A stretch of DNA of 32,000 nt. It comes from Chlamydiota bacterium (GTDB taxonomy: Bacteria > Auribacterota > JACPWU01). Under the pieces are notes generated by a model. It was not told where the DNA came from, did not search any database, and saw only the letters and a list, made by a program, of their open reading frames with translations. How positions within the stretch are numbered: the stretch's first letter is position 1; each line of letters opens with the position of its first letter. The position numbers and the translations under genes were made by a program. Of the stretch, positions 5,428-32,000 are shown piece after piece. Location of the stretch: the NCBI GenBank assembly GCA_016196885.1, contig JACPWU010000046.1, positions 1-32,000 of the forward strand, read 5' to 3'.

Positions 5428-5891
5428 AGAGCCTATTTCCTCAAGAAAGTGAAGCCTCGCGATTTTCTGAAGGGTCGGAAGTGAGGCCTCTTTAAGGCAT
5501 CAGGAGCGCCCGAAACAAATCCAAACTGCTCTTTCATCTTCCTAAAATAGGCGCTGCGATCATTATGACCCGTCATACGAGGCGCAATCACCCAATAACC
5601 GATCTTGGCCTCTTTCAATTTCTTCGTAATCCCTTCCGTATGAAACCCACCCACCACAAGCGCTGCACAGGTGAGTTTCTTTTCCTGAATAATTTCAAGA
5701 GACTTCTCGAACATGATTTGGTCTCGCTTCAGAACTTGGGCATAGAATTTTTGGGAGAGGACGAAGATCTCTCCAAAATCTTCAAGAATAGGGGATGATA
5801 GATTATTTGCTTCAGAATTGACTTCTTTTGTTAAGGTCTTCAGACGATAAAGGAAGTCTTTTACATATTCTTCTTCTCTTTGTGAGTCTTT

Positions 5892-6025
5892 CCTCCCCCT
5901 TATTTTTTTAAGGGGGACTGGGGGGGTTAACTCCTCTTCTTTCATAACTCCCCTAACCCCTCTCAAGCTTTTACAAGATTTTATAGTCCCCACGGGATAG
6001 TCCCCTTGGGATATCTTAAGAGGGG
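5892..6025. repeat. multi-hairpin palindromic element lying in frame inside the coding sequence (same family as 27979..28064 and 28326..28426)
   Basis: Hairpins CCCCCTTA-loop-TAAGGGGG, GGGGGTTAA...TAACCCCTC, and CCCCTCT...AGAGGGG. Translated as SPLK...LRGVRGVMKEEELTPPVPLKKIRGRK. Confidence 0.6.
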
Positions 6026-6925
6026 AAAAAGAACCACCCCATACAACTTTTACATCCCCCCTTTTCCCTTCCAAATTTACAATACGCTTCAACCGTCTAT
6101 AATCGTCCTGAAGTTGAAAAAGTTCTTTCTCTCGATCCTCTCTCAGCAACACTTTAAAGATTTTCTCTTCCACTTGATGAATTTCATTGTCCAACTGTGT
6201 CCATGAGATTTCACTTAAAAACTTCATTTGCTGAAACAGCAATTCCAAATTTTTGTATTTTTGTGAATCCTGAACTCTACTTAAATATTTACTTAAATAT
6301 AAATAATGTTCCTCATCGCTCACCTGTCCTAAGCGATGCTCTAATACTTGTCTCAAAAGTTCTTTCAATTCCTCTTTTGGAAGTTGCTTTTCTAACACTT
6401 CAAGAAATTCTAAATACTCACTCTCTAATTTCTTATGGTTTGTATCCATTTCCAAAGCTTTCAAGGTTTGAAATTTTCCTAACACCGGATTTCTTTCACC
6501 TATTTTTTCTGAAATACTCTCTCGTATAATCCCACCAAATAAGAAACATATGCATCCATGCCTAATTTCAATGTTTCGTAATTTTCTTTCTTTTTCATCA
6601 ACTCCTGAATCTCTTCAGAATAAATTTTCTCTGACAACTTTTGAAATACATGCTCCAAATCCTGCCAGACCTGTTCTTGCCGCCCCTTTTCCTCCAAAAG
6701 CTCACCCATCACTTTGAGGTTCTGAACATAATCAGGCAAATTTTCGACGCCCACCCCTTTCACTTTTTCAGGGCCCTGCTCAATGAGAAAAGCTTCTACC
6801 GCATCCAATTCATTTTTATCCAAGAATTTCTTTAGGCAAGAGGTCAACACCTTTTGATCCGGAAAGGACCAAAAAAAGGACATGTCCATGTCTTTGCTGG
6901 CGGCTTCGGAGAGAACATAAAAAAG

Positions 6926-6989
6926 GCTGGGGAGCTAGGAGGCTAGAGGACTTCCTCTCCCTAGCTTCCCAGCTTCCTAACTTCCTAGC
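6926..6989. repeat. inverted repeat built from 8-nt units (GCTRGGAG arrays facing CTCCYAGC arrays), inside the coding sequence
   Basis: gctggggagctaggaggctagagga / tcctctccctagcttcccagcttcctaacttcctagc. Equivalent element at 29086..29157. Translated as KLGSWEARERKSSSLLAPQ. Confidence 0.7.
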
Positions 6990-7529
6990 TCTGATTGTCA
7001 TTTCTTCTAATATTTCCAATATCCTTTTGATATTCCCTTGTGCTTCAGCATTACAATGAATGTCTTCAATGATAAAAACATGAGGTTGACCTGGAACTGT
7101 GAATGGGTCTATCACTTCTCCAATGGAGGAAGAAAGGTGAAAAGTCTCAAAAGAAGGTTTTAGCTTCCCATATTTGAGAGAGGACGTTCCCTGAGTAGGA
7201 GTTAGAGTTTTTAGAGGGGTTATAAATTGTGAATCTTAGCCCAACGCATAGGAAAAATCGTAGAACAGAAAGGAAATACAAATAAATAGGCTTATGAACG
7301 ACTGAAGACATCGTTTGCGCCCTTTTTGACAAAGCCTCATAAATCCCCCCAGCCTCAGTGTCCTATTATAAAGACGCAATTGAAGGCTCAAATGCCAAAA
7401 AAATAACGTCAAATTGACCCTTCAGTACCCCTTAAACTCCTATTTTTTACCTAAGTCAAAAAAAGAGTAGACTTTTTTATACTTTGGTATAAACTGTAAG
7501 AGATCGTCGGAAACCTTTGGAAAAGTGAT

Positions 7530-16790: not shown

Positions 16791-18019
16791 TATTTTAAAA
16801 ACCTCCTCACACAATCAAACGCCGCCTGTGTCGCTTTAAAGCGAACAGTATCGCGGTCTCCGGAAAAATGAAAAGATTTTGCTGTCGTTTTCTTTCCATC
16901 GCTCAAGCCAATCCACACCAAGCCCACAGGTTTCTGAGGAGAACCGCCTTCCGGCCCCGCAATCCCAGTAATAGAAAGCCCTAAATCCGCTTTGAACTCT
17001 TTGCAAACCCCTTGGGCCATTTCTAAAGCGACCTTTTCGCTCACCGCTCCATATTTTTTTAAACTCTTTTCGTCAACGCCTAAAAAGTGTTTTTTTGAAT
17101 CATTCGAATAACTCACCACCCCACCCCGAAAAATTTTTGACACCCCCGAAACCGAAGTCAAACGCTGAGAGAAAAGACCGCCTGTACAGGATTCAGCCAC
17201 CGTAAACTGTTTATTTTTTTTGATCAAAAGATTTGCTATGACCTCATGCAAAGAGTTATTGTTTTCTCCATAAAGCCAAGGTTGAAGTGCCCTTTCTATT
17301 TTTTTAAGACGTTCTTGAAAGATCCTTTTCTTTCCTTGAGGAATGGCAACGCGAACACTGACACCTGAGGGGGCGGAAACATAACCCAAACTTCTTAAAA
17401 ATGGATCATCATTTCTAAAAGTCCGATTCATCAATTCTTGAACACTCGACTCCACAATTCCATAAGTTTTGAATGTACAAAATTCAAAAATCCCTTTTCC
17501 AAAAAACTTTTTAACTCTGGGAAGAACATCCCTTTCAAACATCGGCCCCATTTCATAGGGAGGACCCGGCAGGAGAAAAATTTGTTTCCCCTGATATTCT
17601 AAGAACATGCCAGGGGCTGTTCCCACCTTATTCCAAATGACCTGAGCCCCTTTTAAAATAAGGGCCTGTGCCTTGGCAATTTTGGGAAGCGGAAGATTTC
17701 GAGTATGGAATTTTTTCTGAATATCTTTCAAAACTTTTGAATTAGATTTTAAAGGAAGATTTAAAACTTGAGAGGTTACTTCACGGGTTAAATCATCGGT
17801 GGTGGGTCCTAAACCACCCGTCAGAATGATAATATCGGCAAAGCGAACACACGCAGAGAAAACACTTTTTAAGTCTTGATCATCATCTCCAACCACCACA
17901 TGACGATGGAGAGGAATTCCCACTTCGGAAAGCCAACCTGCCATGAGGTAAAAATCTTGATCCTGGACTTTCCCCAACATCAACTCTGTTCCTGTCGCAA
18001 TCGTGACAATCTTTTTCAA
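16790..18019 (-). CDS. cinA: competence/damage-inducible protein CinA (MoCF-type N-domain plus nicotinamide-nucleotide amidase C-domain)
   Basis: N-terminal ILTGGLGPTTDDLT. C-terminal VAESCTGGLFSQRLTSVSGVS and GLSITGIAGPEGG. Confidence 0.92.
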   Translation of the reverse strand: MKKIVTIATGTELMLGKVQDQDFYLMAGWLSEVGIPLHRHVVVGDDDQDLKSVFSACVRFADIIILTGGLGPTTDDLTREVTSQVLNLPLKSNSKVLKDIQKKFHTRNLPLPKIAKAQALILKGAQVIWNKVGTAPGMFLEYQGKQIFLLPGPPYEMGPMFERDVLPRVKKFFGKGIFEFCTFKTYGIVESSVQELMNRTFRNDDPFLRSLGYVSAPSGVSVRVAIPQGKKRIFQERLKKIERALQPWLYGENNNSLHEVIANLLIKKNKQFTVAESCTGGLFSQRLTSVSGVSKIFRGGVVSYSNDSKKHFLGVDEKSLKKYGAVSEKVALEMAQGVCKEFKADLGLSITGIAGPEGGSPQKPVGLVWIGLSDGKKTTAKSFHFSGDRDTVRFKATQAAFDCVRRFLK

Positions 18020-18032
18020 AGAGTTTATTCCT

Positions 18033-18998
18033 CTAGACCTTGCTCTTAAAATACTCTATCACTCTCTTTAAAATGCCATCCAAGGAAATCTTGGGCTCAA
18101 ACTGGATGATTTTTTTCACCTTAGAAATATCAGGAACTCTGGCGTGCATGTCTTCAAAACCCTGAGCATAGGCCTTTTCATAAGGGACAAATTCTACCTT
18201 GGAAGAGCTTCCGGAAAGGCGAATCACGCGTTCAGCCAATTTTTGAATCGAAATTTCTTCCTGAGAACCAATGTTAAAGACTTCTCCCACAGCCTTGTCC
18301 TGCAAAGATAAATCTATCAGCGCTTTTGTAACATCCTCTACATCGCAAAAACTGCGACTCTGACTTCCATCGCCATAAACCGTTAAAGCTTCTCCAGCCA
18401 ATGCCTGCTGAACAAATCGAGGGATCACCATCCCATAACGGCCTGTCTGACGGGGGCCTACTGTATTAAAAAGTCTTACAATCACGACAGGAAGTTTTTT
18501 CTCATGCCAATAGGCCAAGGCTAAAAATTCATCAATCGCCTTGGAACAGGCATAACTCCACCTGCTTCGGGTGGTAGGTCCTAAAACCATATCGTCATCT
18601 TCTTTAAAAGGGATCTTGTTGTTTTTTCCATACACCTCAGAGGTAGAAGCCAAAATAACTTTCTTTCCTTTCATGTTGGCCGCGTCCAAAACCTTTTCTG
18701 TTCCCCGAATATTCGTCTCAATCGTCCGAACAGGACTGTCCACAATCAATCGCACACCGACCGCAGCTGCTAAATGATAAACCACATCTGACCGGTCTAT
18801 CCATTCGCAAAGCAAAGAATAATTCATAATGCTTTCAATGATGTAATGAAAATTTGGATAAGCTTTAAGATGTTCAATGTTCTCAATACTGCCCGTGGAT
18901 AAATCATCCATCACATAGATGTGATGATTTTGCTTGAGCAAGGCCTCTGCTAAATGAGAACCAATAAAACCTGCGCCACCTGTGATGAATACTTTCAT
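18033..18998 (-). CDS. NAD-dependent sugar-nucleotide epimerase/dehydratase (extended SDR)
   Basis: [16 protein letters not shown] Rossmann motif, catalytic YACSK, STSEVYG. The start overlaps the GT2 stop (ATGA). Confidence 0.9.
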
Positions 18999-19774
18999 AT
19001 CGTCGTGAGTCGTGAGTCGTGAGTCGTGAGTTGATTGTTCTTAGATTCAAAAATTCTAAATTGGCATAATTTAAATTTTTGGAGCATATACTGTACCAAT
19101 GTCAACAAAACCCGACATCCGTAAATGATGCTTCTTTTAAGATTAATAGAGGAAGCTTCTTTCATATAGCGAACAGGCACAGGAATATCTCCGATGCGAA
19201 ATCCAAAATACACACATTGAGCTAAAAACTGGGCATCAAAAGCATAATCATTCGAATTATTTTCAAAGGGAATTGTTTCTAACACTTTTCGTGTATAGGC
19301 TCGCAAACCACTGTGTCCATCTCCCATATTCTGCCCCAAAATCACATTCATCACAAAGGTTAAAAAGCGATTCGCAAAATATTTATAGACAGGCATCCCT
19401 CCCTGCAAAGTTTCTTCACGGGTTCGAATCCGATTGCCCAACACCACATCGCACACCCCCGTTTGGAGAAATCCTGCAATGTAGGGAACCAGGCGACTGT
19501 CGTATTGATAATCCGGGTGAATCATCACCACCACATCCGCGCCTCGCTTCAAGGCCTCTTCGTAACATGTCTTTTGATTGCCCCCATAGCCGCGATTTTT
19601 CGAATGAGTGATGACCGTCAACCCTAGATGTTTGGCAATTTCAACAGTCTGACCTCCACTGGCATCATCCACCAAGATTATTTCTGAATAAGACCCCTTC
19701 GGAATATCTCGAAATGTTTTTTCTAAAGTTTTTTCCGCATGATAGGCGGGCATGACGATGATGATTTTACTCAT
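18995..19774 (-). CDS. family 2 glycosyltransferase
   Basis: [16 protein letters not shown] ... [13 protein letters not shown] ... NRGYGGNQK. The C-terminal tail ([11 protein letters not shown]) is encoded by a 7-nt tandem repeat. Confidence 0.9.
19004..19031. repeat. perfect tandem repeat (cgtgagt) x4
   Basis: Read directly. It lies 5 nt upstream of the epimerase ATG and inside the last codons of the GT2 gene. Confidence 0.9.
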
Positions 19775-19776
19775 TA

Positions 19777-19902
19777 AAACCTCTCAAAAAGGTCCCAGAG
19801 GGAAGCGCGCCCGCGAGCGACCGCGGAGGCGTACGTTTTCGAGTACGCCGCACAAGGGAGCGAAGTGGGCAACGCCGCAGATGGGCCTTTTTCAGAGGTT
19901 TT
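19777..19902. other. long GC-rich imperfect hairpin filling the whole mnmA-GT2 intergenic space
   Basis: Outer arms aaaacctctcaaaaaggtccca (19777-19798) and tgggcctttttcagaggtttt (19882-19902). Inner hairpin ggcgtac-gttttcga-gtacgcc (19828-19849). The local GC content is far above that of the flanks. Confidence 0.5.
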
Positions 19903-21007
19903 ATTCAATGAATCCTCCGCCCAACACCTGATCCCCATCATAAAAGACAGCCGCCTGCCCAGGCGTTACTGCTTTTTCTGGACTCAACAATTGGACCTGT
20001 GCGTGACTCTCATCCAAAAACGAAACGGTCACTCTCGCCCCTTCATGCATACTTCGAATTTTCACAGTACATTCCACAAGGTCTTTTGGTTTTTGATTTG
20101 AGATCCAATGTGTGTCTTTTGTCCTAAATCCTGAAACATAAAGGTCTTTTTCTTCTCCCACAATCACGGTGTTTGTTTTTCCATCTAAAGCCACTACATA
20201 CGCAGGATGTCCAAATGCAATCCCCAACCCTTTTCTCTGGCCAATGGTAAAATTCTGAATGCCTTCATGCGTTCCAATCATATTTCCAGCCATGTCTTTC
20301 ATAGGCCCTTTTTGAAACTCACCGGGGACCGCCTTCTTCAAGAAGTTGACATATTTTCCATCCGGTACAAAACAAATCTCCTGGCTGTCTGATTTATCGA
20401 AAACTTTAAGCCCTGCTTTTTTGGCCAATTCACGACTTTCAGATTTTGTCCTATTTCCCAAAGGAAAATAAAGTTTGGAAAGCTTGCCTTGAGTCAGGGT
20501 ATAAAGAAAATAGGACTGATCTTTCTTTAAATCCTTTCCCTTACGTAAAATAAATTCTCCTTTTTTTTCTTCTACATTGGCATAGTGGCCTGTCGCTAAT
20601 TTCCAAGCTCCTAATTTTTCAGCAAATTCAAGCATGCTTCCAAATTTTAATTTCCGATTGCACACAACACAAGGATTGGGGGTTCTCCCCTCACGATATT
20701 CATTACAAAAATAATCAATGACATTTTCTTGAAAAGCCTCTTTGTGATCAATCACATAAAAAGGAATGCCCAATTGATAGGCCACAGACCGACCATCTTC
20801 CACCGCTCGAGGCCCACAGCAGGCATGTTCTCCTGTATCCGAGCAATCCCCAAGCCAAACTTTGAGTGTGATCCCAATCACCTCATAGCCCTGCTCTTTT
20901 AGAAGCAAAGCCGCAACACTGGAATCCACTCCACCGCTCATGCCAACGACAATGCGAAGCGATTTTGGATTTTGGATTTTGGATTTTGGATTTAACGATT
21001 CCATCAT
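19901..21007 (-). CDS. mnmA: tRNA 2-thiouridine(34) synthase MnmA
   Basis: PP-loop VVGMSGGVDSSVAALLL, CCGPRAVEDGRSVA, GHYA. The start overlaps the stop of the upstream cysteine desulfurase gene. Confidence 0.95.
   Translation of the reverse strand: MMESLNPKSKIQNPKSLRIVVGMSGGVDSSVAALLLKEQGYEVIGITLKVWLGDCSDTGEHACCGPRAVEDGRSVAYQLGIPFYVIDHKEAFQENVIDYFCNEYREGRTPNPCVVCNRKLKFGSMLEFAEKLGAWKLATGHYANVEEKKGEFILRKGKDLKKDQSYFLYTLTQGKLSKLYFPLGNRTKSESRELAKKAGLKVFDKSDSQEICFVPDGKYVNFLKKAVPGEFQKGPMKDMAGNMIGTHEGIQNFTIGQRKGLGIAFGHPAYVVALDGKTNTVIVGEEKDLYVSGFRTKDTHWISNQKPKDLVECTVKIRSMHEGARVTVSFLDESHAQVQLLSPEKAVTPGQAAVFYDGDQVLGGGFIE
20961..20993. repeat. tandem repeat (gattttg) x4.7 inside the first codons of mnmA
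   Basis: Read directly. Translated as NPKSKIQNPKS. Confidence 0.9.
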
Positions 21008-22215
21008 TTTCTTAACCTTCCCACCACTTCAGAAACTTTTTCAATTGTAAAATCTATATCCTCCTCCCTATTCCCCCACCCCAAAGAAAATCGAATCGCA
21101 CCTTGGGCTCTTTCGCGAGACAAGCCCAGCGCCATCAGAACAGGAGAAGGTTCAATCCCTCCGGATAAACAAGCCGAGCCGCTCGATGCCGCAATTCCCT
21201 CTAAATCCAAATTTAAAAGAAGCGCCAGACCATCGACTTCGCCAAAAGAAAGATTGAGCGTATTCGGTAAGGATTTCGAAGGATGTCCATTCAAAAAACA
21301 ATCCTTGATGCGATTTTGAAGGCCTTCACATAATTTCTGTTTCAATTTTTCCATTTTAAGAAACTCGCTTGGGTCTTTGCTGGAAAGTATTTCTGCCGCC
21401 TTCCCAAATCCCACAATGCCTGCAACATTTTCAGTCCCGGCCCTCATGTCCCGCTCATGATGCGCTCCATGAATGAGCGAATGAATTTTTAAATCATCTC
21501 TGACATAAAGAGCGCCTACGCCTTTAGGCCCTCCCATTTTATGAGATGAAATAGAATAAAGATCCACCCCCAAAGCTCGCAAATCAAGAGTCATTTTCCC
21601 TGCAGCCTGAACTCCATCCAAATGGACCCCAATCCCCTTCTCATTGGCAAAAGCAATCACTTCTTCCACAGGCTCAATCGTCCCAATTTCATTTTGCGCA
21701 TGAATCAATGAAATTAAAGTTGTCTGGGACGTAATAGACCTCTTCGCATCTTCGAGAGAAATCAAACCCGTAGAATCTACAGGTAAAACACTCAGTGAAA
21801 AATCAAACTCATTTTCCAAATAATGGCATGTTTCCAAAGTGGCAGAATGTTCAACCACAGACGTGATTAAATGTTTTCCCTTAGTACGCTTCGCAAACGC
21901 GACACCCTTAATCGCCGTGTTAATGGACTCAGAGCCCCCACTCGTAAAAATAATTTGGTCCCGTCGAACCTTGAGCCATTGAGCCACTTGATTCCTAGCA
22001 TTTTCCACCGCCTGCTTCGCATGACGCCCTTCTCCATGCACGCTGAAAGGATTGCCGTAAACCCCGTCCAGATAAGGACGCATGGCGTCGGCTACCCCTA
22101 AAAGCATGGGCGAAGTGCTGTTGTAATCCAGATAAACACGGAACTGAAAAGCAGTCATAGGGAAAGATCCTACACCATCTTGAGGGGTAAGCCTATAGGG
22201 ATTTTTGTATGCCAT
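21004..22215 (-). CDS. cysteine desulfurase (NifS/IscS family)
   Basis: YLDYNSTSP, PLP-lysine motif SSHKMGGPKGVGALYVR, active-site loop SSGSACLSG. An alternative start is ATG 22158 (MTAFQFRVYLDYN). Confidence 0.92.
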   Translation of the reverse strand: MAYKNPYRLTPQDGVGSFPMTAFQFRVYLDYNSTSPMLLGVADAMRPYLDGVYGNPFSVHGEGRHAKQAVENARNQVAQWLKVRRDQIIFTSGGSESINTAIKGVAFAKRTKGKHLITSVVEHSATLETCHYLENEFDFSLSVLPVDSTGLISLEDAKRSITSQTTLISLIHAQNEIGTIEPVEEVIAFANEKGIGVHLDGVQAAGKMTLDLRALGVDLYSISSHKMGGPKGVGALYVRDDLKIHSLIHGAHHERDMRAGTENVAGIVGFGKAAEILSSKDPSEFLKMEKLKQKLCEGLQNRIKDCFLNGHPSKSLPNTLNLSFGEVDGLALLLNLDLEGIAASSGSACLSGGIEPSPVLMALGLSRERAQGAIRFSLGWGNREEDIDFTIEKVSEVVGRLRK

Positions 22216-22245
22216 GAAAAGGAGAAAAAGATGGAATGGAATTTT

Positions 22246-22578
22246 TCATCCACATTTCTTAACCACATCATCCATAAAAGCCCTAAAACATGAAAGAACA
22301 TCTTTTGGATAGGGGGAGGATTCAACAGTATGATCCTGACCCTTATGAAAATGATAAGGAAAGGTGGAAACACCTTTCCATTCAGGGTCTGGAAAATTAT
22401 CTAAGCGATAGATCAAACCATCTATATGCCGCCGTTCCCAATGAATTGCAAAACGTTCCTCAATTATTTTAGCGAGATATACATCAATAAAACTATGATC
22501 ACAAAGCTGAATTCTGAGTTTTGAACCCAGGTATTCTGTGAAGGATACAACGGCAGGAAACTCCAGCTCGGCAACTCG
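22246..22578 (-). pseudogene. TumE-like (DUF6516) toxin-family ORF without a usable start codon
   Basis: 110-codon open frame that is absent from the ORF track because it has no ATG/GTG/TTG near its 5' end: RVAELEFPAVVSFTEYLGSKLRIQLCDHSFIDVYLAKIIEERFAIHWERRHIDGLIYRLDNFPDPEWKGVSTFPYHFHKGQDHTVESSPYPKDVLSCFRAFMDDV. The HW..(n)..YR.DN.P......FP.H.H core resembles DUF6516. A GTG directly after the upstream stop (22598-22596) is in another frame. Confidence 0.55.
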
Positions 22579-22598
22579 CTAATCTCATTTAATCCCAC

Positions 22599-22814
22599 TT
22601 AAACATTCTCCAGAAGAGAACTGATCTGTTTACGGCGAGTCTCCAATTCATCCAATTCGAAAAAGTCTTCCCAACCCTCTTCTTCGCGAATCTTACCCGA
22701 TTGTATGAATTGATCCAACTGAAACACATCTTTTACTTCATGACGAGATGCAATTCTAAAAATCTCCGATTCCACATGACGCAACTGTTGCTCCAAATAA
22801 GTCCGCAGACTCAT
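22599..22814 (-). CDS. small acidic hypothetical protein, start overlapping the giant ORF stop (ATGA)
   Basis: 71 aa. ATG 22814-22812 overlaps TGA 22813-22811. No family recognised. Confidence 0.5.
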   Translation of the reverse strand: MSLRTYLEQQLRHVESEIFRIASRHEVKDVFQLDQFIQSGKIREEEGWEDFFELDELETRRKQISSLLENV

Positions 22815-25800
22815 TTGACACGGATTTGGTCTTTTTCGCCGCCCATAACTAAAACAAGATTTCCTGCAATATCATTTTGATTAGTCATGGGCCAAAAATC
22901 TGAATCTTTTAAACCATGTTGATCTTTATCTACATCCCCTTTTGCGTCAAAGAAACGAGCATCTATTTTCATTTGCCTTAAGAAATGTACCATAGCCAAA
23001 ACTTCTTGAGCCCGTTCAGGATTCTCAAGCGACCTTACATCAAATGCAAATTTGAGAGGCACTCTTAAATCTGTGATCCTGCCTTGAATCGCCTTTTTTA
23101 AATTTGCCTTCAAGCTCCAAAGCTTTTTCACAGAAAGTGCAGCCCCCAAGCCCCATCTCATTTTTTCTTGAGGAGAAAGATCAGAAGAAGCCACTTCTAC
23201 ATGAACACTCGCGTCTCGAAGACTCAAAGCATCTCTCAAGGAAGTATCCAACGTTACAGAATCTTCGGAAATTCCAGCAGCCTCTTCACTCAAAGCTCGT
23301 ACTTCCCCGTCGCGAATGTTTAAAACAATCCCTTCTTTATGCGTAAAAGTGTCTCCTGCCAAACGCTCCATTCTCTGAACTTGATCTGCTACACCCGTCT
23401 GAGCAAACCCATACATCATGCGAAGCTCTAAAGCTAAACGCTGTATTTCCCCTCCTCTCTGCTCATATATTGAAAGACTCAATTCTTCTATTAAAACATC
23501 CAGCGTATTGCGCGATAGACGAGGATGATCACGTAGATATTTATCCAAAATATCTGCGAATGTCCTAAGAACTTCTGCATCTGAAATATCTCTGCGAGAT
23601 AAATAATCATCGAAGGCCCTATTTTCTATCAACGCATCATTATCTGTCAACCAGCCCATAAACTTGAGCATAACTCTTTGACGGAGGTCTAAAAAGTAAA
23701 GACTCCTGCTATCCAACAGCCTATGAACTAGAGAAACATCTTCATCTCTCATTTGCTTGACCAACCTAGATTCAGACGACAAAGTCTCAAGAAATGCTGT
23801 TTTGAAATCATCTGAATTCTCTATAAGACTTATATCTTGCACGAGACCTGTCCTTAAAATCTCAATATCTTGATATGTCAAAACTCCATGCAACTCATCG
23901 CCTTTTTTACTCATCTCATGCATAGCCTCATGCGAAGTGCCATAAATCCAGTCGGCTTGGCGATGTTCTTGAGGAATGTTGGTGAGATGCTTTAGATTAA
24001 CGAAAAATTTCCCATCGCCCACACAGTTTCCGTAGGGCGAGCGAAAGTCATAACCCTCTTTGAGATGCTTTTCATCTCCAAAATAAAAGGTGTATTCCCC
24101 ATCCGCTAAAGTTGTTGTTTCAAATTCTAAATCCTCTGCCCTTGCTCGAATAAAATCGCCCCATTTCTTCAGGAACTCTTGCTCTTGATCCGCTTTAATT
24201 CCTAAAAGTCGATAGAGCGCTTTTTTCTCATCAGAATCGGGAACACTAAACTGGCCGTCCGTCACTGTTATTGTGATCGGGTTGCCATCCAAGAGTATAT
24301 TCACCTGAGCCATTTCTTGAGAAGGATATTCTAAGTCCGACCTGTTCTGAGCGTCAAAATGGGCGTATGATCCCCCTTCAACAAGAACATTCTTCTCAGT
24401 GTCATACCTCACACTGATTTGCTCTAAATATTTCTGAAACGCCTGCTGAACGTTACGTAACAATTGCCAATCCTGATCTGTCAAAGGAACACTCACAACA
24501 TTTTGATTATGCTCATGTTGTGTTCCTCTTAGCTCGCTCCATTTATTGAGAGAGGGATAGAGCCTTGTGTATTTTTCAGGATAACCGGCCAGATAGCCTG
24601 CGAGTTCGATTAACTCTGTATCTGAAAGACCTTTTAAATCCATTGGGTAGGTTTTCACTTTTAGAATTTGCCATCCCGTCCCTTCAAAAGTCTTTTGTGC
24701 CGTGGCTCCCACCCGCAATAAGAGCGGAGGAGAAGTGACCAATTCCACTTTAAGATCAGAACGGCCGAGAAAAAGTCTCTCGACCCCTTGTTTGCTGTTG
24801 ACCAAAGTATCCACCGTCACGCGTGATGGTTGTTCTTCTATATGAATCAATTCAGGCTCATCAAATTTAGATAAAATCCCTTCTTTTTCAAAACAAAATT
24901 TTAGGATATCCGATTCTAAAAAACTTTCATCCGTGATACCTTTCTCCAACCGCTTCTTCTCAGCAGGAGTTAATGTTCCCAAAGCTTCATAGTGGACAAT
25001 GGTTTTTTCTATCAAAGGAATCGTTCCTCTTCCTCGGCCAGCAGCGATGACAATGGGAATACGCAGGCCTCTCTCATCTCGAATTCCCTTCCATGTATTC
25101 GCAAACTCTATAAAAGCTCGAAGATCCGGATTTCCTAAAGCGAGAAAAACATCCGGTAACTGATCCGAAAGTTCATCTCCTTGCGAAAGAAAATCCACGT
25201 AATCTTGAAAAACTGTTTTGAAATTTTCCCTTGCTTCCTGCAAAGGTTCTTTTCCTAAAGCAACAGTATCACTGAAAAATTTCCGCTCCTCAGGCGTTCC
25301 ATGATCACGAAGCCAACCCTTAACGTACCCCTCAGATTCGTCATATCCTCTCTGAGCTAGCTCTAAAATTTCTCTTTCCTCCCAACGAGACGCTATAGCA
25401 CCTATAAATTCAAAAACCTGAACTGTATTTTTTTTCCCAAGACGTCTAGAAATCTTACCTAGTACAGAACATACTGGTTCTTGAAGATAAACCTTTTGTT
25501 TTTCCTCCTCTGAAATTTCATCTCCTATGGCCAAGCGCGCAGAAATACCCCCCACGCCTCCAGTCTGCATAAGTTTCCGCTGATTCGCGCTCGATCTTCC
25601 CTGAATAACCGGACTCCCTCGTTCCTGAAGCGCTTCCAAAATCCCAAAATGAGCTGCACCATAAAGCAATATGACCGCATAACCTTTCTGCGATGCTTCT
25701 AAAACCTGTTCGACGATGCGACGATTCCTATTAGTCGCATACACGCTCCAAGCACTAACAACTTCATCCATCCATTGAAAATATTGAAGGCTTTGTTCTG

Positions 25801-27523
25801 GTGTTCTAAGGCCAGTAGAAAAAAAATACTCCAAAGCCCGTGTCCTTCTTCCTTCCTTCCAGAAGCCGGACAACCAATCTTGGAACTGAATGTCCTCAAG
25901 AATAACCCTCGTATGTGTTTGAGCTATCCATTGCATGAGCATTGCTTCAAAATCTGAAACACATTTTTGAACCCAGTTAAAAACAACCCCGCTGTTTAGA
26001 ATAGACTCGTATGCCTTTCTCATAGCCTGAAGTTGAAAATCAAAATGATGCCTCTTCAATACATTCTCAATGAAATCAGGGATTTGTTCCACCGTCTTAA
26101 TAAATTCGTCTGGTAATAAAGATAAAAGAGAACGATATTCTCCTGAAATGTCTGCTGGACTAAGCCGGGCAGGTCCACCATTGTCTAATATCAAAACAAG
26201 TCTCCGCCCTTCTTCACTGGCCTTACGCCTTGCTTCTTCTAAATCTGGAAGATGCTTTTCAAAATCCTCCTTCGATTGATTAGCCATTGCAATGTATGTA
26301 ATGGAACCTGGTGGAATGCCTGCAGAGGTATCTATTTTTTTAGGCATTTGTAGCTTTTTTCTATTCCATTCATTCACCAAATTCGCGATACGACCAGCCG
26401 GAGCATTTCCTCCTGTAAAATCTAAAACTCTGAGTATTTTCTGAACAATCTTTGTATTTAACGCTTTTCCCTGGCTCCTGGTTAAAAGTTCTCTGAGCTG
26501 GCGATCTAAGTCCGCGTCACTTGATCTTTTTTTCCGTTTAATCCCATTGACTTTTAAAATCTCTCGTTTCAGTTTTTGAAAATCATCATCTGCTAATACC
26601 AACTGATAGGGTTTCGGCATAACGAGGTTATAAATCACATGCCCCGCATACGCCCACAAAGCCTGATTCCACCCCGAACTCCCTTTAGAATATTCAGCAA
26701 ATTTGTCGAAGAAACTCAAACTCTCGGGATCAAAAGAAGCAAGCGCTACGGGAAGTAAACTACTGATGAGAGTGGCAGCAAACCAACGAACTAAAAATTG
26801 TGTGAACTTTTCTTTAGTAGTTAATCCCGGTGGCGCATGAATCAAATGAATCAGGGCAAAAATGAAAGCCCCCACCGGAATCCCCCACACGCCCAATACC
26901 GGCGCCAAAAAACGCGCAAACCCCGGCAAGCCCAAAAGTTCTAACGCTGGAATTACACCTACTCTCACCCAGCGCTTCTTTAAAATCTCATCAGCCCTGG
27001 CCTGGGCCTTATCTTTCTCCATTCCACCCAGCCTCAGAACTCCGTCTAGAACCCAGTTCCAGAGGGGGAGAACGAGTTGAGATAAACCATCTTCCGCCAA
27101 CCCTTCTTGATCCATAGGTAAGCTGATCCTTACAAGATCTTTTTTCTCCAAGCCAGGGGGTCGCGATACTTCCACCTCACTTGATCCAGTTTCACTTGGT
27201 GCAGCGGACACCACCCCTACCATTTCTCCCATCAACTGAAGCGTTCTAACCCCTAGAAAATTTTTTGAATTTCTTTTCCCATCTTTAGCGTCGCCTCCCA
27301 CATATTTCTCCATCAAATCACGAAACTCTTCATATCCCTCCCCCAAAGATTCTTTTAAATAGGCCTCTGTCAATTTTTGAATCGTTCCACCCTCATGCAA
27401 AAGTTGATTCATTTGTTTCAATTTATTGGTTAATTCTGGATCTAAAATGGAGCTTGTCGAATGCCCATGTTTTTTTTGAGCGCTTGAATCACAGGTTTTA
27501 GAGAGGGAACTGATTTTTCCCAT
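22811..27523 (-). CDS. giant multidomain membrane protein: CPBP/Abi-like TM module, TraB/GumN-like C-half, DUF218/YdcF-like domain, HExxH motif
   Basis: 1570-codon frame. CPBP-like FIFALIH and AGHVIYNLV sit in a hydrophobic block. TraB/GumN-like NRNRRIVEQVLEASQKGYAVILLYGAAHFGILEAL. DUF218-like DVFLALGN...IPIVIAAGRGRGT...ESDILKFCFEKEGI...IHIEEQPSRVTVDTLVNS...VELVTSPPLLLRVG. Zincin-like GTSHEAMHEM. The first 27 codons overlap the upstream ORF; an alternative start is ATG 27412 (MNQLL). Confidence 0.75.
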   Translation of the reverse strand: MGKISSLSKTCDSSAQKKHGHSTSSILDPELTNKLKQMNQLLHEGGTIQKLTEAYLKESLGEGYEEFRDLMEKYVGGDAKDGKRNSKNFLGVRTLQLMGEMVGVVSAAPSETGSSEVEVSRPPGLEKKDLVRISLPMDQEGLAEDGLSQLVLPLWNWVLDGVLRLGGMEKDKAQARADEILKKRWVRVGVIPALELLGLPGFARFLAPVLGVWGIPVGAFIFALIHLIHAPPGLTTKEKFTQFLVRWFAATLISSLLPVALASFDPESLSFFDKFAEYSKGSSGWNQALWAYAGHVIYNLVMPKPYQLVLADDDFQKLKREILKVNGIKRKKRSSDADLDRQLRELLTRSQGKALNTKIVQKILRVLDFTGGNAPAGRIANLVNEWNRKKLQMPKKIDTSAGIPPGSITYIAMANQSKEDFEKHLPDLEEARRKASEEGRRLVLILDNGGPARLSPADISGEYRSLLSLLPDEFIKTVEQIPDFIENVLKRHHFDFQLQAMRKAYESILNSGVVFNWVQKCVSDFEAMLMQWIAQTHTRVILEDIQFQDWLSGFWKEGRRTRALEYFFSTGLRTPEQSLQYFQWMDEVVSAWSVYATNRNRRIVEQVLEASQKGYAVILLYGAAHFGILEALQERGSPVIQGRSSANQRKLMQTGGVGGISARLAIGDEISEEEKQKVYLQEPVCSVLGKISRRLGKKNTVQVFEFIGAIASRWEEREILELAQRGYDESEGYVKGWLRDHGTPEERKFFSDTVALGKEPLQEARENFKTVFQDYVDFLSQGDELSDQLPDVFLALGNPDLRAFIEFANTWKGIRDERGLRIPIVIAAGRGRGTIPLIEKTIVHYEALGTLTPAEKKRLEKGITDESFLESDILKFCFEKEGILSKFDEPELIHIEEQPSRVTVDTLVNSKQGVERLFLGRSDLKVELVTSPPLLLRVGATAQKTFEGTGWQILKVKTYPMDLKGLSDTELIELAGYLAGYPEKYTRLYPSLNKWSELRGTQHEHNQNVVSVPLTDQDWQLLRNVQQAFQKYLEQISVRYDTEKNVLVEGGSYAHFDAQNRSDLEYPSQEMAQVNILLDGNPITITVTDGQFSVPDSDEKKALYRLLGIKADQEQEFLKKWGDFIRARAEDLEFETTTLADGEYTFYFGDEKHLKEGYDFRSPYGNCVGDGKFFVNLKHLTNIPQEHRQADWIYGTSHEAMHEMSKKGDELHGVLTYQDIEILRTGLVQDISLIENSDDFKTAFLETLSSESRLVKQMRDEDVSLVHRLLDSRSLYFLDLRQRVMLKFMGWLTDNDALIENRAFDDYLSRRDISDAEVLRTFADILDKYLRDHPRLSRNTLDVLIEELSLSIYEQRGGEIQRLALELRMMYGFAQTGVADQVQRMERLAGDTFTHKEGIVLNIRDGEVRALSEEAAGISEDSVTLDTSLRDALSLRDASVHVEVASSDLSPQEKMRWGLGAALSVKKLWSLKANLKKAIQGRITDLRVPLKFAFDVRSLENPERAQEVLAMVHFLRQMKIDARFFDAKGDVDKDQHGLKDSDFWPMTNQNDIAGNLVLVMGGEKDQIRVK

Positions 27524-29442
27524 TGATCAAATTCTTGAGAAGAAAGATTAGCCTTCTGAAGCATTTTTTCTCCTAGGCCTTCCATTACTTCATAAAATCC
27601 CTCTTTCGATGGCTCTTCTATAAATTCATTAAATTCTTTCATTTTTTGAAAATAAACGCGGCGATCATCTATTTTTTCTGAATGGGGGGCAATGACGCAG
27701 TAGCCCATCTCAGCTTCTTTTAATTTTTCTTTGAGGGCATCTGTATGAAAACCTCCGACGACGACAGCGGCATTTTGAAGTTTCTTTTCTTTGATCTCTT
27801 GAGAAAGTTTCTGATAGAAAATTTTGTCTCGATCAAGCACTTTTTTGTAAAACTTTTTGGCGGTCTGGAAGATGTTTTCAAAGTCAGGGGATTCGAAAGA
27901 GAGGTTATTTTCTTCGCACAACTTTCTTAAGGCTTGAGAAAAGTTTATTACGTACTCTTCTTCTCTTTGTGAGTTTTTCCTCCCCCTTATTTTTTTAAGG
28001 GGGATTGAGGGGGTTACTTCCTCCTCTTTCATAACTCCCCTAACCCCTCTTAACTTAAGAGGGGAACGAAGGCCACTCCATATAGCTTTTAAATCTTCTC
28101 TCTTTCCCTCCATCGATATCACTCGCTTCAAAACAGTGTAATCATTTTCAAGCTTCAGCAGTCTCTTGATTTCCTTTTCATTTCCTTTTCCCCTGTACGC
28201 TGAACGCTCTACGCTGCCCGCTAATTTTTCAACCTCTGAGTCCAATTTTTCCCATGAGATTTTTTTCATAAGGGACATCTGCTCGATAAAAAATTTGAGA
28301 TTGGGATAGAGTTCTTTTTGTTTTTCCCTCCCCTTAATATAAGGGGAGCCGGTGGGGTTATTGACTTCTTCCATAACTCCCCCTACCCCTAACTCCCCAG
28401 GCCCCTCTTTAAAAAAAAGAGGGGGGACGTTCTCTTCATGTTCTGGTTCTAGATATTTACTTAAGAAAAGATAATGCGCTTCATCCCCAATTCTCCCCAA
28501 ACGATGTTCCAGCACATTTTTCATCACTTCGTTAAGTTCTTCTTTCGTCAACTGTTTCTCTAATGTTTGAAGAAATGAAAGATATTCGCTTTCGACTCTC
28601 GACATATCTGTTTTCTTCTCAAGAGTTTGAAGTTTTAAATAAAGACTTATTTGAGGAAAATCCTCTTCTAACTTCAAACCTCTAACATTTAACTGCTGTA
28701 GATATTCCCCCATTCCAATTTTGAAATCTTCATATTGCTTCTTTTTTTTCATCAACTCTAAAAGTTCTTGAGGATAAATTTTTTCTCTCAAACTTTGAAA
28801 CAATTCTTCCAAATCGCTCCACACATGCTCTTGAAGTTCTCGCTCTTCCATCAATTCATTCATGAGTTTTACATTCTCAAGATAGGGCTGAAGTTCTTCA
28901 ACGCCCAAACCGATTGCTCCACCAGTTTTTTCTCCCATTAAAAAGGACTCCACGCCATTGATGTCTCTATCCTGAATGAACTGATCTTGAACCAAAGGCA
29001 GTATTTCTTTTTTTGGAAAAGCTGTAAAAAAACTCATGTCCATCCATCCCGTCGCAGCCTCGGAAAAAACACAAAAAGACTGGCTGGAAAGCTGGGAGGC
29101 TAGGAGGCTGGGAGAAAGCTTTTGCTGTTTAGCTTCCCAGCTCCCCAGCTTCCTAGCATCTTTTGTTTCTTCCTTCAACACCTTCAATATCCTCGCTATG
29201 TTCCTCTCAACCTCTGGATTACAATGAATATCCTCAATTAAGAAGACGGTAGGATTCCCCGATAAAAGCACTTGATCTGTGATTTCTCCCATATCTGCAG
29301 GGATTGGGTTGGAATTCAAGAACATGTCCGGCTGGGAGGGGAGATAAGTCTTAATTGCTTGATGTGGAATGGGTTGTGAATAAGGCTCTATTTGTTGACT
29401 CCAACTTGGTTGAATATCATAAGAGACAAAGCAAAGACACAA
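27442..29442 (-). CDS. Tiki/TraB/ChaN-superfamily protein (intact paralog of 5433..7332)
   Basis: N-terminal VFLIEDIHCNPEVERNIARIL (ChaN/erythromycin-esterase-type GE-H-N motif). C-terminal LDRDKIFYQKL...AAVVVGGFHTDALKEKLKEAEMGYCVIAP (TraB/GumN-type motif). The track start is TTG. An ATG at 29470 with a hydrophobic leader lies one frame off. Confidence 0.75.
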   Translation of the reverse strand: MCLCFVSYDIQPSWSQQIEPYSQPIPHQAIKTYLPSQPDMFLNSNPIPADMGEITDQVLLSGNPTVFLIEDIHCNPEVERNIARILKVLKEETKDARKLGSWEAKQQKLSPSLLASQLSSQSFCVFSEAATGWMDMSFFTAFPKKEILPLVQDQFIQDRDINGVESFLMGEKTGGAIGLGVEELQPYLENVKLMNELMEERELQEHVWSDLEELFQSLREKIYPQELLELMKKKKQYEDFKIGMGEYLQQLNVRGLKLEEDFPQISLYLKLQTLEKKTDMSRVESEYLSFLQTLEKQLTKEELNEVMKNVLEHRLGRIGDEAHYLFLSKYLEPEHEENVPPLFFKEGPGELGVGGVMEEVNNPTGSPYIKGREKQKELYPNLKFFIEQMSLMKKISWEKLDSEVEKLAGSVERSAYRGKGNEKEIKRLLKLENDYTVLKRVISMEGKREDLKAIWSGLRSPLKLRGVRGVMKEEEVTPSIPLKKIRGRKNSQREEEYVINFSQALRKLCEENNLSFESPDFENIFQTAKKFYKKVLDRDKIFYQKLSQEIKEKKLQNAAVVVGGFHTDALKEKLKEAEMGYCVIAPHSEKIDDRRVYFQKMKEFNEFIEEPSKEGFYEVMEGLGEKMLQKANLSSQEFDQWEKSVPSLKPVIQALKKNMGIRQAPF
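27979..28064. repeat. multi-hairpin palindromic element in frame within the CDS (family copy)
   Basis: cctcccccttatttttttaaggggg / gagggggtta...ctaacccctc / cccctcttaacttaagagggg. Translated as SPLKLRGVRGVMKEEEVTPSIPLKKIRGRK. Confidence 0.65.
28195..28222. repeat. array of four 7-nt units inside the CDS
   Basis: gtacgct gaacgct ctacgct gcccgct. Translated as AGSVERSAYRG. The paralog has unrelated sequence at this position. Confidence 0.6.
28326..28426. repeat. multi-hairpin palindromic element in frame within the CDS, absent from the paralog
   Basis: ccctccccttaatataagggga ... ggtggggtta...ccctacccct ... cccctctttaaaaaaaagagggggg. It corresponds to a ~36-40 aa insertion (NVPPLFFKEGPGELGVGGVMEEVNNPTGSPYIKGREK) relative to the 350-aa paralog fragment. 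Confidence 0.7.
29086..29157. repeat. inverted repeat of 8-nt units in frame within the CDS
   Basis: gctgggag gctaggag gctgggag - aaagcttttgctgttt - agcttccc agctcccc agcttcct agc. Translated as KLGSWEAKQQKLSPSLLASQLSSQ. Confidence 0.75.
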
Positions 29443-29675
29443 AATGACACTGATGAGTTTTTGAACTCATTTCATAAAAATGTCTTTACCTCTATAAAAA
29501 TTCATAACTTATTTATATACAAAAAGATACGACATTATTATTTTTTAAAAAACAAGGCCGCACGAGATTATCATTCAATGAGAATAGACATTTTATGAAG
29601 GGGAAAGGTCAAAGGAGAAAAAATGTGATTTTGGATTTTAAATAGGATAGAATGACTCTTAGTAAGGAGTTTTTC

Positions 29676-29966
29676 ATGCCTCTCTACGAGTTTCTCAAGA
29701 AAAGAAGAAATGACATCCTTCAAGCTGCTCTGCGACATGGGGCAAAAAACGTACGCTTGTTTGGCTCGGTTACACGTAAAGAAGAAAATACCCAAAGTGA
29801 CATTGACCTTCTCGTCGAAATGGAAAAAGGGAGAAGTTATCTTGACTTAGTTGAGTTATGGCAAGAATTAGAGGAACTTCTTGGGAAGAAAGTAGACCTT
29901 CTGACAGACGGAGGGATCAGTCCTTATTTAAAAGATCGCATTTACTCTGAAGCCATTCCCTTATGA
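29676..29966 (+). CDS. mntA: nucleotidyltransferase antitoxin (MntA type)
   Basis: RLFGSVTRKEENTQSDIDLLVEM (GS-x10-DxD). Start set at ATG 29676, preceded by AAGGAG at a 6-nt spacing (the track start 29652 is also possible). The stop overlaps the hepT start (ATGA). Confidence 0.85.
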   Translation: MPLYEFLKKRRNDILQAALRHGAKNVRLFGSVTRKEENTQSDIDLLVEMEKGRSYLDLVELWQELEELLGKKVDLLTDGGISPYLKDRIYSEAIPL

Positions 29967-30292
29967 AGGACAACTCCCTTTATCTTCTGCATATTCGAGA
30001 CGCACTCGATCTCATCCTGGAATATGCTTCTTCAGGGAAAGAGTTTTTCATGCAAGATAAGAAAACTCAAGATGCAATCATTCGCAATCTTGAAATTCTT
30101 GGAGAAGCAACGAAAAATATCCAGGAAGATTTTAGACAAGTGCATTCAGAAATTCCTTGGAAGGCTTTGGCCGGAATGAGAGATAAACTAGCCCATGATT
30201 ATTTTGGCGTTAATCTTGAGATTGTATGGGAAGTTGTGGACAAAAGAATTCAAGAACTTAAGGAAAAGATTAATAACCTTTTAAACAACTGA
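29963..30292 (+). CDS. hepT: HEPN/DUF86 toxin (HepT type)
   Basis: 109 aa with the Rx4HxY motif (MRDKLAHDYFG) and the typical IIRNLEILGEA segment. Confidence 0.88.
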   Translation: MKDNSLYLLHIRDALDLILEYASSGKEFFMQDKKTQDAIIRNLEILGEATKNIQEDFRQVHSEIPWKALAGMRDKLAHDYFGVNLEIVWEVVDKRIQELKEKINNLLNN

Positions 30293-30315
30293 CATCTTTC
30301 ACTTTGCAAAAAAAT

Positions 30316-30492
30316 TTAGCGATTAGAATAGCACTCTCGATACAGAATCTCTCTTTCTTCTTTTAGACCTACGAGCAACTCGTTAAGAGTTTTTCCTGAA
30401 GCTGTGAGGAGCTCCCGAAGCTTTCTCCGAGATTTTTTCAATTCAAGCTTTTTAGAGCTACGGCATTTTCGATCAAATCTTTCTCTCTCCAT
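30316..30492 (-). CDS. possible 58-aa basic protein overlapping the 3' end of coaX
   Basis: Below the ORF-track size cut-off. The ATG at 30492 is preceded by AGAGGA. Translation MERERFDRKCRSSKKLELKKSRRKLRELLTASGKTLNELLVGLKEEREILYRECYSNR. No family recognised. Confidence 0.3.
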   Translation of the reverse strand: MERERFDRKCRSSKKLELKKSRRKLRELLTASGKTLNELLVGLKEEREILYRECYSNR

Positions 30493-31279
30493 TTTGGTCC
30501 TCTTTTTTCTCCTCCAAAATATCGTAAATGGCCTTAAGTCCTTTTATCGTCAGATTTGAATCAAAATGATGAACCTCTTCAATGTCGGAAAGAAAATAAG
30601 AAACGTAGCCTCCAGTCGCGATGACTTTAACGTCCATCTCGTAACCTGGGAAAACTTCTGCTTTTAATCTTTTCAGCAAAAATTTGACCATGCCCACGAA
30701 CCCCCAATAAATACCAGATTGAATCGCAGAAATGGTGTCTCTACCCAAAACTTCATTTGGTTTTATGATATTGACCCAAGGTAGGAGCGCTGTTCTCTCG
30801 TGCAAAATATCTCGGCTCAGGCCCATCCCTGGCAGAATCACCCCTCCCAAATATTCCCCGCCAAAAGAAATGATATCGAAGGTCACCGCAGTTCCAAAAT
30901 CAACGACAATGGCAGGTGTTCCATAAAGTTTTCGAGCTGCAATCGCATTGGCAATCCGGTCGGCTCCGACTTGTCTTGGATTTTTGTACCAAATCTTAAG
31001 GTCTATATTGAGATCACTGGAAACACAAACGGGCTTGACTGAAAACAATTTTTCACAGAGTGATTCGAAAACTTCTTTCAGCTCTGGAACGACCGTGGCA
31101 ATGACAACCCCTTTGATTTCCTTTTGCTCTTTCAAACCATCTGGTAAATTCTTGAGATAATAGACTTCATCTTTTTTGACCGTCGCAATTCTCCAAAAAT
31201 CCACCACGGCATCCCCTTTAAAAACACCCATCACTATATTTGTATTGCCAATATCCACAACTACAATTTTACCGGACAT
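30473..31279 (-). CDS. coaX: type III pantothenate kinase
   Basis: VVDIGNTNIVMGVF, VGADRIANAIAA, VVDFGTAVTFD, ATGG. AAGGA 8 nt upstream of the ATG. Confidence 0.93.
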   Translation of the reverse strand: MSGKIVVVDIGNTNIVMGVFKGDAVVDFWRIATVKKDEVYYLKNLPDGLKEQKEIKGVVIATVVPELKEVFESLCEKLFSVKPVCVSSDLNIDLKIWYKNPRQVGADRIANAIAARKLYGTPAIVVDFGTAVTFDIISFGGEYLGGVILPGMGLSRDILHERTALLPWVNIIKPNEVLGRDTISAIQSGIYWGFVGMVKFLLKRLKAEVFPGYEMDVKVIATGGYVSYFLSDIEEVHHFDSNLTIKGLKAIYDILEEKKEDQNGERKI

Positions 31280-31296
31280 AATGGATCCTTTTTTAT

Positions 31297-31326
31297 AGCG
31301 TACAGCGATCAGCGTTCAGCGGTCAG
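31297..31326. repeat. array of four imperfect 7-nt units 5' of the coaX start
   Basis: agcgtac agcgatc agcgttc agcggtc ag. Located in the 73-nt birA-coaX spacer. Confidence 0.7.
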
Positions 31327-31352
31327 TTTGAAAGGAACGATTTTATTTTTCG

Positions 31353-32000
31353 CTACACGCTCATTCGATCTAAAATTTTTACATCTCCACTTAAGAAAGC
31401 CTCAATAAAGCCTCCCTCTCTTCTTAAAAGCAAAGCCCCTTTCGCATCCGTTCCCAAAACAGTCCCCTCCCATTTTTTATCACTCACCTTCACCTCTACC
31501 CAATGTCCGACAAGTGATGAAAGCCTGGACCATTGAGACAGAAGAAAATCGTACTCCTGATTCTGGAGATGCTCATAAGTCTTTTCTAATTGTAGTAGTA
31601 ACTCTCTCACAAGAACTGTTCTGTCCCATAAATGTCCACTGAGCATCGCCAAAGAAGTGACTGTTTTTTGGATATCTTCAGGGCATTCAGAAGAATCCAT
31701 ATTCACATTAAGTCCGATACCCACAATCACATGCTTGACCTCATTTTTTTCGGATTTCATCTCTGTTAATATTCCTGCCACCTTTTTCCCTTCCACATAA
31801 ATATCATTCGGCCATTTAATGAAGGCGTGAAAACCCTCTTCCCGTAAAAGAGAAGCCACCGTAACAGAGCTCATGACAGTGATCAAGGAAACCTCTTCGA
31901 GCCGTAGCGAAGGCCTCAAAATTAAAGACAAAAGAATGTTCTTGCCCTTGGGTGAAGACCAAGACCGCATCATCCGTCCCCGTCCTTGCCTTTGATATTG
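31353..32000 (-). CDS. birA: biotin--[acetyl-CoA-carboxylase] ligase BirA (5' end beyond the window)
   Basis: The frame stays open to the window edge. It reads GRGRMMRSWSSPKG (the GRGRxGRxWxSPxG motif), KWPNDIYVEGKKVAGILTE and GIGLNVN. Confidence 0.92.
   Translation of the reverse strand, partial: QYQRQGRGRMMRSWSSPKGKNILLSLILRPSLRLEEVSLITVMSSVTVASLLREEGFHAFIKWPNDIYVEGKKVAGILTEMKSEKNEVKHVIVGIGLNVNMDSSECPEDIQKTVTSLAMLSGHLWDRTVLVRELLLQLEKTYEHLQNQEYDFLLSQWSRLSSLVGHWVEVKVSDKKWEGTVLGTDAKGALLLRREGGFIEAFLSGDVKILDRMSV

Follow-up and report, generated by a model that had tools for sequence, protein, structure and literature searches.

Frameshifted pseudogenes are known in Chlamydiae among large multi-copy surface and effector genes, for example the pmp genes and the large cytotoxin genes of the plasticity zone. 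In dnaX and IS3-type elements, programmed -1 frameshifting takes place on A_AAA_AAG together with an upstream Shine-Dalgarno (SD) sequence and a downstream hairpin. Contingency loci and transcriptional slippage also operate at homopolymers, as exemplified by poly(A) rescue in insect endosymbionts and the T9 tract of mxiE. Giant multi-domain proteins have been described in Omnitrophota (West-Roberts et al., bioRxiv 10.1101/2023.11.21.568195). Here we analysed a stretch of 32,000 nucleotides (the window; contig JACPWU010000046.1, assembly GCA_016196885.1) from a metagenome-assembled genome (MAG) of a Chlamydiota bacterium, in which two long open reading frames (ORFs) overlap in different frames across a run of eight adenines (A8). 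We consider it likely that this overlap reflects a one-base frameshift that became fixed in a paralog inactivated not long ago, one of a family of giant secreted proteins that turns over rapidly. All positions below are those of the window.

The locus resembles the pmp and cytotoxin pseudogenes in that a large paralogous gene has acquired single-base indels at short homopolymers and nonsense codons, with intact copies standing beside decayed ones. The family in the window is, however, a different and uncharacterised one, and the organism is an environmental MAG. As in dnaX and the IS3-type elements, an A-rich heptamer of the form X_XXY_YYZ lies in phase and the downstream ORF is in the -1 frame, but the locus has neither stimulators nor conservation, and its A-site codon is AAC instead of AAG. 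As at contingency and slippage loci, one additional A in the homopolymer could restore the frame, whereas the tract in the window is 8 nt long, not conserved, identical in two assemblies and accompanied by other fixed lesions in the same gene. With the Omnitrophota giants the locus shares very long secreted or membrane proteins, assorted enzyme domains and a host among the groundwater bacteria of the Planctomycetes-Verrucomicrobia-Chlamydiae (PVC) group (bioRxiv 10.1101/2023.11.21.568195). Those proteins have other N-terminal features, C39 and S8 peptidases and dockerin types, and the N-terminal domain (N-domain) found in the window is unmentioned in the searched passages of that preprint (bioRxiv 10.1101/2023.11.21.568195). 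Omnitrophota also host distant relatives of this N-domain, such as P0124.

The upstream ORF runs on the minus strand from 29442 to 27442 and comprises 666 codons from a TTG start (625 aa in the NCBI call, HYS08_03780). It encodes the N-domain of the family and an FDQW linker, followed by an out-of-frame tail of 8 codons (NMGIRQAPF*). The downstream ORF, also on the minus strand (27523 to 22811, 1570 codons, HYS08_03775), continues the same protein through the linker and a transmembrane segment into unique middle modules, and ends after the first two thirds of a conserved C-terminal domain. NCBI annotates both ORFs as proteins. They overlap by 82 nt (27442-27523), with the downstream ORF in the -1 frame of the upstream one (29442 mod 3 = 0; 27523 mod 3 = 1, minus strand). 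The minus strand reads GCG CTC AAA AAA AAC ATG GGC at the tract, with A8 at 27470-27477. An earlier reading made from the DNA alone, hereafter the sequence-only reading, had described this overlap in the -1 register across A8, and all of its coordinates hold; the A_AAA_AAC slippery heptamer that it pointed out is indeed in phase with the upstream (zero) frame. Insertion of one A into the tract produces a single ORF of 2210 codons without any internal stop. Because the -1 frame opens only ~18 codons ahead of A8 and the zero frame already closes 8 codons past it, the overlap is a trivial by-product of the frame change and carries no independent signal. Neither a terminator nor a convincing promoter was found in the junction 27442-27523, and no SD-like motif is seen in the sequence before the ATG at 27523. 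The tract itself is statistically unremarkable, given that A8 runs are under-represented in the window, with 12 matches compared with 22 +/- 7 in dinucleotide shuffles. The peptides predicted across the junction are ..VIQALKKNHGHSTSSILDPELTNK.. for a ribosomal -1 shift, ..VIQALKKKHGHSTSS.. for a tract of nine adenines (A9) and ..ALKKNMGIRQAPF for the unshifted tail; a trans-frame peptide is predicted to read ..ALKKN/HGHSTSS.. or ..ALKKKHGHSTSS...

The relatives of the protein identify the exact position of the break. An exhaustive HMMER search with a junction-spanning query collected 3,438 cluster representatives, whereas a word-indexed protein search with the junction-spanning query returned 4 proteins and missed the close relatives, and with the 1570-aa ORF it returned only the ORF itself. 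Seven relatives (P0006, P0022, P0007, P0008, P0018, P0021 and P0002) keep a single frame from the GGFH motif across the linker and further on, and relatives carry the N-domain, the FDQW linker and a long C-terminal part in one frame. The closest of the seven is P0006 (MBI1869940.1, 5912 aa, partial; 71% identical); P0007 (MBI1871109.1, 2039 aa) is complete. When the window protein is repaired by one base, 100 residues align with P0006 without internal gaps, and 22 of the 27 residues just before the tract are identical (..FDQWEKSVPSLKPVIQAL[KKK]HGHSTSSILDPEL.. in the window, ..FDQWEKSVPHLKPVIQSL[REK]HKGVRNSGFDPEL.. in P0006). Frame 0 matches the relatives up to the Leu codon CTC, and frame -1 matches them from the His codon CAT onwards. 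Since the relatives have three residues (9 nt) between this Leu and His but the window has 8 nt, the missing base lies inside the tract. Consistently with this placement, the tblastn alignments switch frame between 27478 and 27442 with P0007 and between 27499 and 27445 with P0006.

The A-tract is not conserved among these relatives. At the position of KKK in the window, P0006 has REK and the others have TEN, MKS or SQF, which leaves no room for A8. The comparison with related genomes that the sequence-only reading had proposed thus went against programmed frameshifting, as neither the slippery site nor the split arrangement is conserved in the seven relatives read in one frame. The suggestion that the two ORFs derive from one ancestral protein of roughly 2,200 residues was supported as to the single protein, as the single-frame relatives and the gap-free repaired alignment indicate; the repaired product of 2210 residues would still lack ~105 residues at the C-terminus. 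At the nucleotide level, a scan of genome contigs gave no relatives and an alignment too divergent for use, and a scan of metagenomes gave one fragment of 1 kb.

The one-base deficit is not the only damage to this gene, which we call the right copy to distinguish it from a paralog to its left in the window. At 29475-29467 on the minus strand, the sequence ATG AAA TGA places an in-frame stop at codon 3 of the conserved signal peptide of the family. A GAGGT motif resembling an SD sequence lies ~12 nt upstream of this ancestral ATG (29475), from which the translation reads MK*VQKLISVILCLCFVSYDIQPSWSQQ, compared with MYKIVQKITSILLCLSFFSYDVSSSFAQ and MFKIGQKIISLALCFSFLVYDINFSFGQ in relatives. The tblastn alignments of P0002 and P0007 begin at 29475/29481 and run through the TGA. 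The next usable start, the TTG at 29442, would leave no functional-looking signal peptide. At the other end, the downstream ORF closes prematurely with ..EKDQIRVK* (AAA TGA, 22811-22816, minus strand). In the alignment of C-termini, P0006, P0007, P0008, P0018, P0021, P0022 and the left copy all continue for ~105 residues (about 103-110) of the conserved C-terminal domain. With P0006, the tblastn match ends at residue 5809 (of 5912); the remaining C-terminus was found nowhere in the window, either by tblastn or by reading past the end in three frames.

The left copy is a well-decayed pseudogene: besides a nonsense codon and three changes of frame, it contains a foreign gene in antisense orientation. 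Its N-terminal domain (5433-7340, minus strand) is broken by an in-frame TAA stop that closely follows the signal peptide (7236-7238) and by frame changes at ~6990-6920 (+1, with T6 at the edge), ~6545-6488 (-1, A6) and ~5503-5433 (-1). Downstream of these, the left 'giant ORF' of 1350 codons (1375-5427, minus strand) contains the FDQW segment in frame, a NAGPA domain and an intact C-terminal domain. The sequence-only reading was correct that FDQW in this paralog is in frame with the giant ORF; the left copy nevertheless has a frame break of its own 20-40 codons upstream. Inside the left giant ORF, a coiled-coil gene of 163-175 codons lies antisense at 4505-5032 (plus strand), with the homologs P0156, P0157 and P0158, of which P0157 comes from a sister Chlamydiae MAG (Pfam PF25541). 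The GC content by codon position in 4505-5032 is 0.51/0.33/0.41 on the plus strand and 0.34/0.51/0.40 on the minus strand, compared with 0.54-0.58/0.36/0.37 in reference genes. These values fit the plus strand and not the minus strand, which indicates that the segment is coding on the plus strand. The left ORF on the minus strand is open there by chance, with a translation rich in S and L. We considered whether the proximity of a -1 break to the same domain boundary in each paralog might be meaningful and rejected the idea, because with ~4 lesions in 1.9 kb of the left copy it is not improbable that one lies ~100 nt or less from the homologous site, and because the positions differ, the left break lying upstream of FDQW and the right one 17 codons downstream of it. 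The sequence-only reading had overlooked the stop at codon 3, the missing 3' end and how far the left paralog has decayed, which together point to pseudogenisation.

The sequence-only reading had offered programmed -1 frameshifting, phase variation at the tract and a homopolymer length error in the assembly as explanations, and none of them fared well. An assembly error, with A9 and one intact ORF in the real genome, would account for a break inside a homopolymer that one added base repairs perfectly. It would, however, demand the same A8 in a second, separately assembled contig. Over its whole length the window is identical to JACOUD010000031.1 (positions 1-32000; GCA_016178005.1, 'MAG: Chlamydiae bacterium', HYS08 locus tags), and the locus there is 100% identical to window positions 17442-32000 over 14,559 nt at the same coordinates. 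Both exact ORF products are also encoded by a second contig, which measures 67,284 bp and belongs to the HYZ67 MAG, and identity in both overlapping frames across the tract means that this contig has exactly A8 as well. Six other A8/T8 runs in the window lie within ORFs without disturbing the frame: two belong to conserved housekeeping genes (17214, CinA; 20561, MnmA) and four to the giant gene. Neither the two further lesions of the right copy nor the four or more lesions of the left copy are homopolymer errors, and intact giant paralogs of 2,000-6,900 aa were obtained from sister MAGs, which carry adjacent NCBI locus-tag series and probably belong to the same submission. These four observations make an assembly error quite unlikely; a literature search for the assembly accession returned no information about the platform used. 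Programmed -1 ribosomal frameshifting on A_AAA_AAC, yielding a short N-domain protein together with a full-length fusion, can appeal to a canonical X_XXY_YYZ heptamer in the correct phase and to frames in the correct -1 relation. The stimulatory hairpin expected 5-9 nt downstream is absent, though. The 100 nt downstream of the tract fold with a minimum free energy (MFE) of -11.7 kcal/mol, weaker than the shuffled sequences (-14.95 +/- 2.69; z = +1.21), and the wider junction region gives z = +0.24; the comparison of MFE with shuffles thus found no stimulatory structure, pseudoknots being outside the folding model. No GGAGG-like or SD-like motif occurs in the 25 nt upstream of the tract, and no frameshift element of Rfam was matched. 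The site is not conserved, since relatives are in frame with other residues at the tract, and the gene is damaged at both ends. Taken with the failure on conservation, structure and Rfam, programmed recoding appears extremely unlikely.

A slippage-prone switch, in which A8 changes its length in the DNA (phase variation) or RNA polymerase adds an A, so that some cells or transcripts yield the full-length protein, would also place the break exactly in a homopolymer where one more A restores the frame, and it would fit two halves that are fully open. Other breaks in the family lie at or beside short homopolymers as well (T6 and A6 in the left copy; T7 in a third paralog described below), and long A/T runs are established sites of transcriptional slippage in bacteria. 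Efficient slippage, on the other hand, is known from tracts of ~9 or more, for which A8 is short. The tract is identical in both assemblies and missing in the relatives, A8 runs are under-represented in the window, and the frame-restored protein would still have neither its signal peptide nor the ~105 C-terminal residues. Phase variation in particular has no positive evidence in its favour. We regard such a switch as unlikely, and it is more doubtful still that A8 is a working slippage site at which an occasional additional A, introduced by RNA polymerase or by replication within the population, restores the protein of ~2,200 residues. If it were, expression of the giant-protein family would be tuned or stochastically switched at short homopolymers, and T6 and A6 of the left copy and T7 of the third paralog would be further examples. 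The two ORFs could alternatively be separately functional genes, one for a stand-alone N-domain protein and the other for a downstream protein starting at ATG 27523 or at a later Met. Stand-alone N-domain proteins occur in 24 of 146 relatives, and NCBI annotates both products. Yet the homology to single-frame relatives is colinear across the boundary and includes the 18 codons leading up to the tract (frame 0) as well as those that follow immediately (frame -1), no SD sequence precedes ATG 27523, and the N-domain protein would be deprived of its signal peptide. Two functional genes are therefore very unlikely.

We accordingly favour a fixed frameshift in a decaying gene. The frame is disrupted relative to intact homologs and additional independent lesions lie in the same gene, both of which are marks of a pseudogene. 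The two ORFs would be the two parts of a single gene encoding a giant secreted multi-domain protein; in this gene, a one-base deficit within the present A8 tract shifts the reading frame by -1. The deficit might have arisen by slipped-strand loss from A9 or, equally well, by loss of a base other than A, for instance the G of AAA GAA AAA, in which case the deletion itself would have created A8. Ribosomes starting upstream would stop 8 codons past the tract. The gene would in addition be disabled at both ends: the early TGA (codon 3) deprives it of the signal peptide, and the conserved C-terminal domain has lost ~105 codons. The right copy would thus be a recently inactivated member of a multi-copy family, its left neighbour having decayed further. 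The lesions would presumably be true mutations fixed in the population, and the gene as a whole would no longer be functional. Several points weigh against this interpretation. Both halves are still entirely open (666 and 1570 codons), which implies either that the inactivation is very recent or that some selection persists. Tract-length heterogeneity is possible, as assemblies were compared rather than reads, and the two assemblies encode identical proteins and so represent one population, not independent lineages. The stand-alone N-domain in ~16% of relatives means that a split arrangement is not non-functional in itself. Finally, an A8 run could allow some frame-restoring slippage of RNA polymerase.

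The family to which both copies belong is characterised by its ~600-residue domain, encoded by the upstream ORF, which is N-terminal in every relative. The general layout consists of a signal peptide, the N-domain, an FDQW-type linker, a membrane segment, variable modules and a conserved C-terminal domain ending in S/N-M. The variable modules include NAGPA, Maf, PPDK, low-molecular-weight (LMW) phosphatase, AceK-like, SDR and histidine kinase domains. Among 146 top-ranking relatives whose N-domain is complete, 102 extend C-terminally by 500 aa or more, and the largest protein among the 150 best matches listed reaches 7,727 aa (P0124, Omnitrophota). Sister 'Chlamydiae bacterium' MAGs (HYS07/HYZ66) supply the close relatives and Omnitrophota the distant ones. 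Invariant residues of the N-domain are D30, H32, E87, R497 and GGxH525, forming D-x-H, E, R and GGxH motifs. A reasonable AlphaFold2 (AF2) model of the domain (predicted local distance difference test, pLDDT, 76; predicted template modelling score, pTM, 0.70) contains a long helical insert. Neither the N-domain nor the 1570-aa part had a match in Pfam, NCBIfam or the Protein Data Bank (PDB), and profile and fold comparison gave weak hints of a relationship between the N-domain and the Tiki/ChaN/erythromycin-esterase-like superfamily.

Within a genome, turnover of the family appears to be rapid. Two partial relatives, P0006 (5912 aa) and P0022 (933 aa), begin at the same residue (EKGNLSSEEFDQW..), just before the linker. 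This shared start suggests that the sister-genome assemblies break at the boundary of a near-identical repeated N-domain. The membrane segment LVLPLWNWV..HLIHAPP is present once in the window (26591-27112, minus strand) and twice in P0006 (residues 2388-2549 and 3916-4079), and the AHFDAQNR..GTSHEAMHE module, found once in the window (23681-24394, minus strand), recurs in P0006 at residues 2929-3124, 4263-4510 and 5057-5269. Since modules that are single in the window gene are repeated two to three times in P0006, the family seems to expand and contract through duplication and deletion of modules. A third paralog, P0004 (646 aa), lies on JACOUD010000023.1 (locus L003, 2638-6752), and its end resembles the first helix of the AceK regulatory domain. 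At the junction 4575-4590 of this locus, a 725-aa ORF with AceK regulatory and kinase domains starts in the -1 frame 4 nt before the stop of P0004, with T7 directly after, and a 2507-aa His_Phos/ARMT1 ORF follows the 725-aa ORF. The junction may be another split of a once-fused gene.

Small genes resembling toxin-antitoxin systems flank the decaying right copy. A nucleotidyltransferase/HepT pair lies upstream at 29652-30292 (plus strand), and an ORF of 71 codons belonging to the Pfam family MJ0235 (22599-22814, minus strand) adjoins the truncated end. The latter was examined as a possible frameshifted continuation of the C-terminal domain and rejected, as it is unrelated to the giant gene and the missing C-terminus lies nowhere in the window. 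Its position at the truncation point may mark the event that removed the end of the gene.

The case most probably represents ordinary gene decay. For annotation, HYS08_03780 and HYS08_03775 are to be treated as one frameshifted and truncated gene instead of two hypothetical proteins, and the ORFs of the left copy are remnants as well. As a by-product, the analysis brought to light a large uncharacterised family of giant secreted proteins in MAGs of Chlamydiota and Omnitrophota, which is a more interesting object than the frameshift itself.

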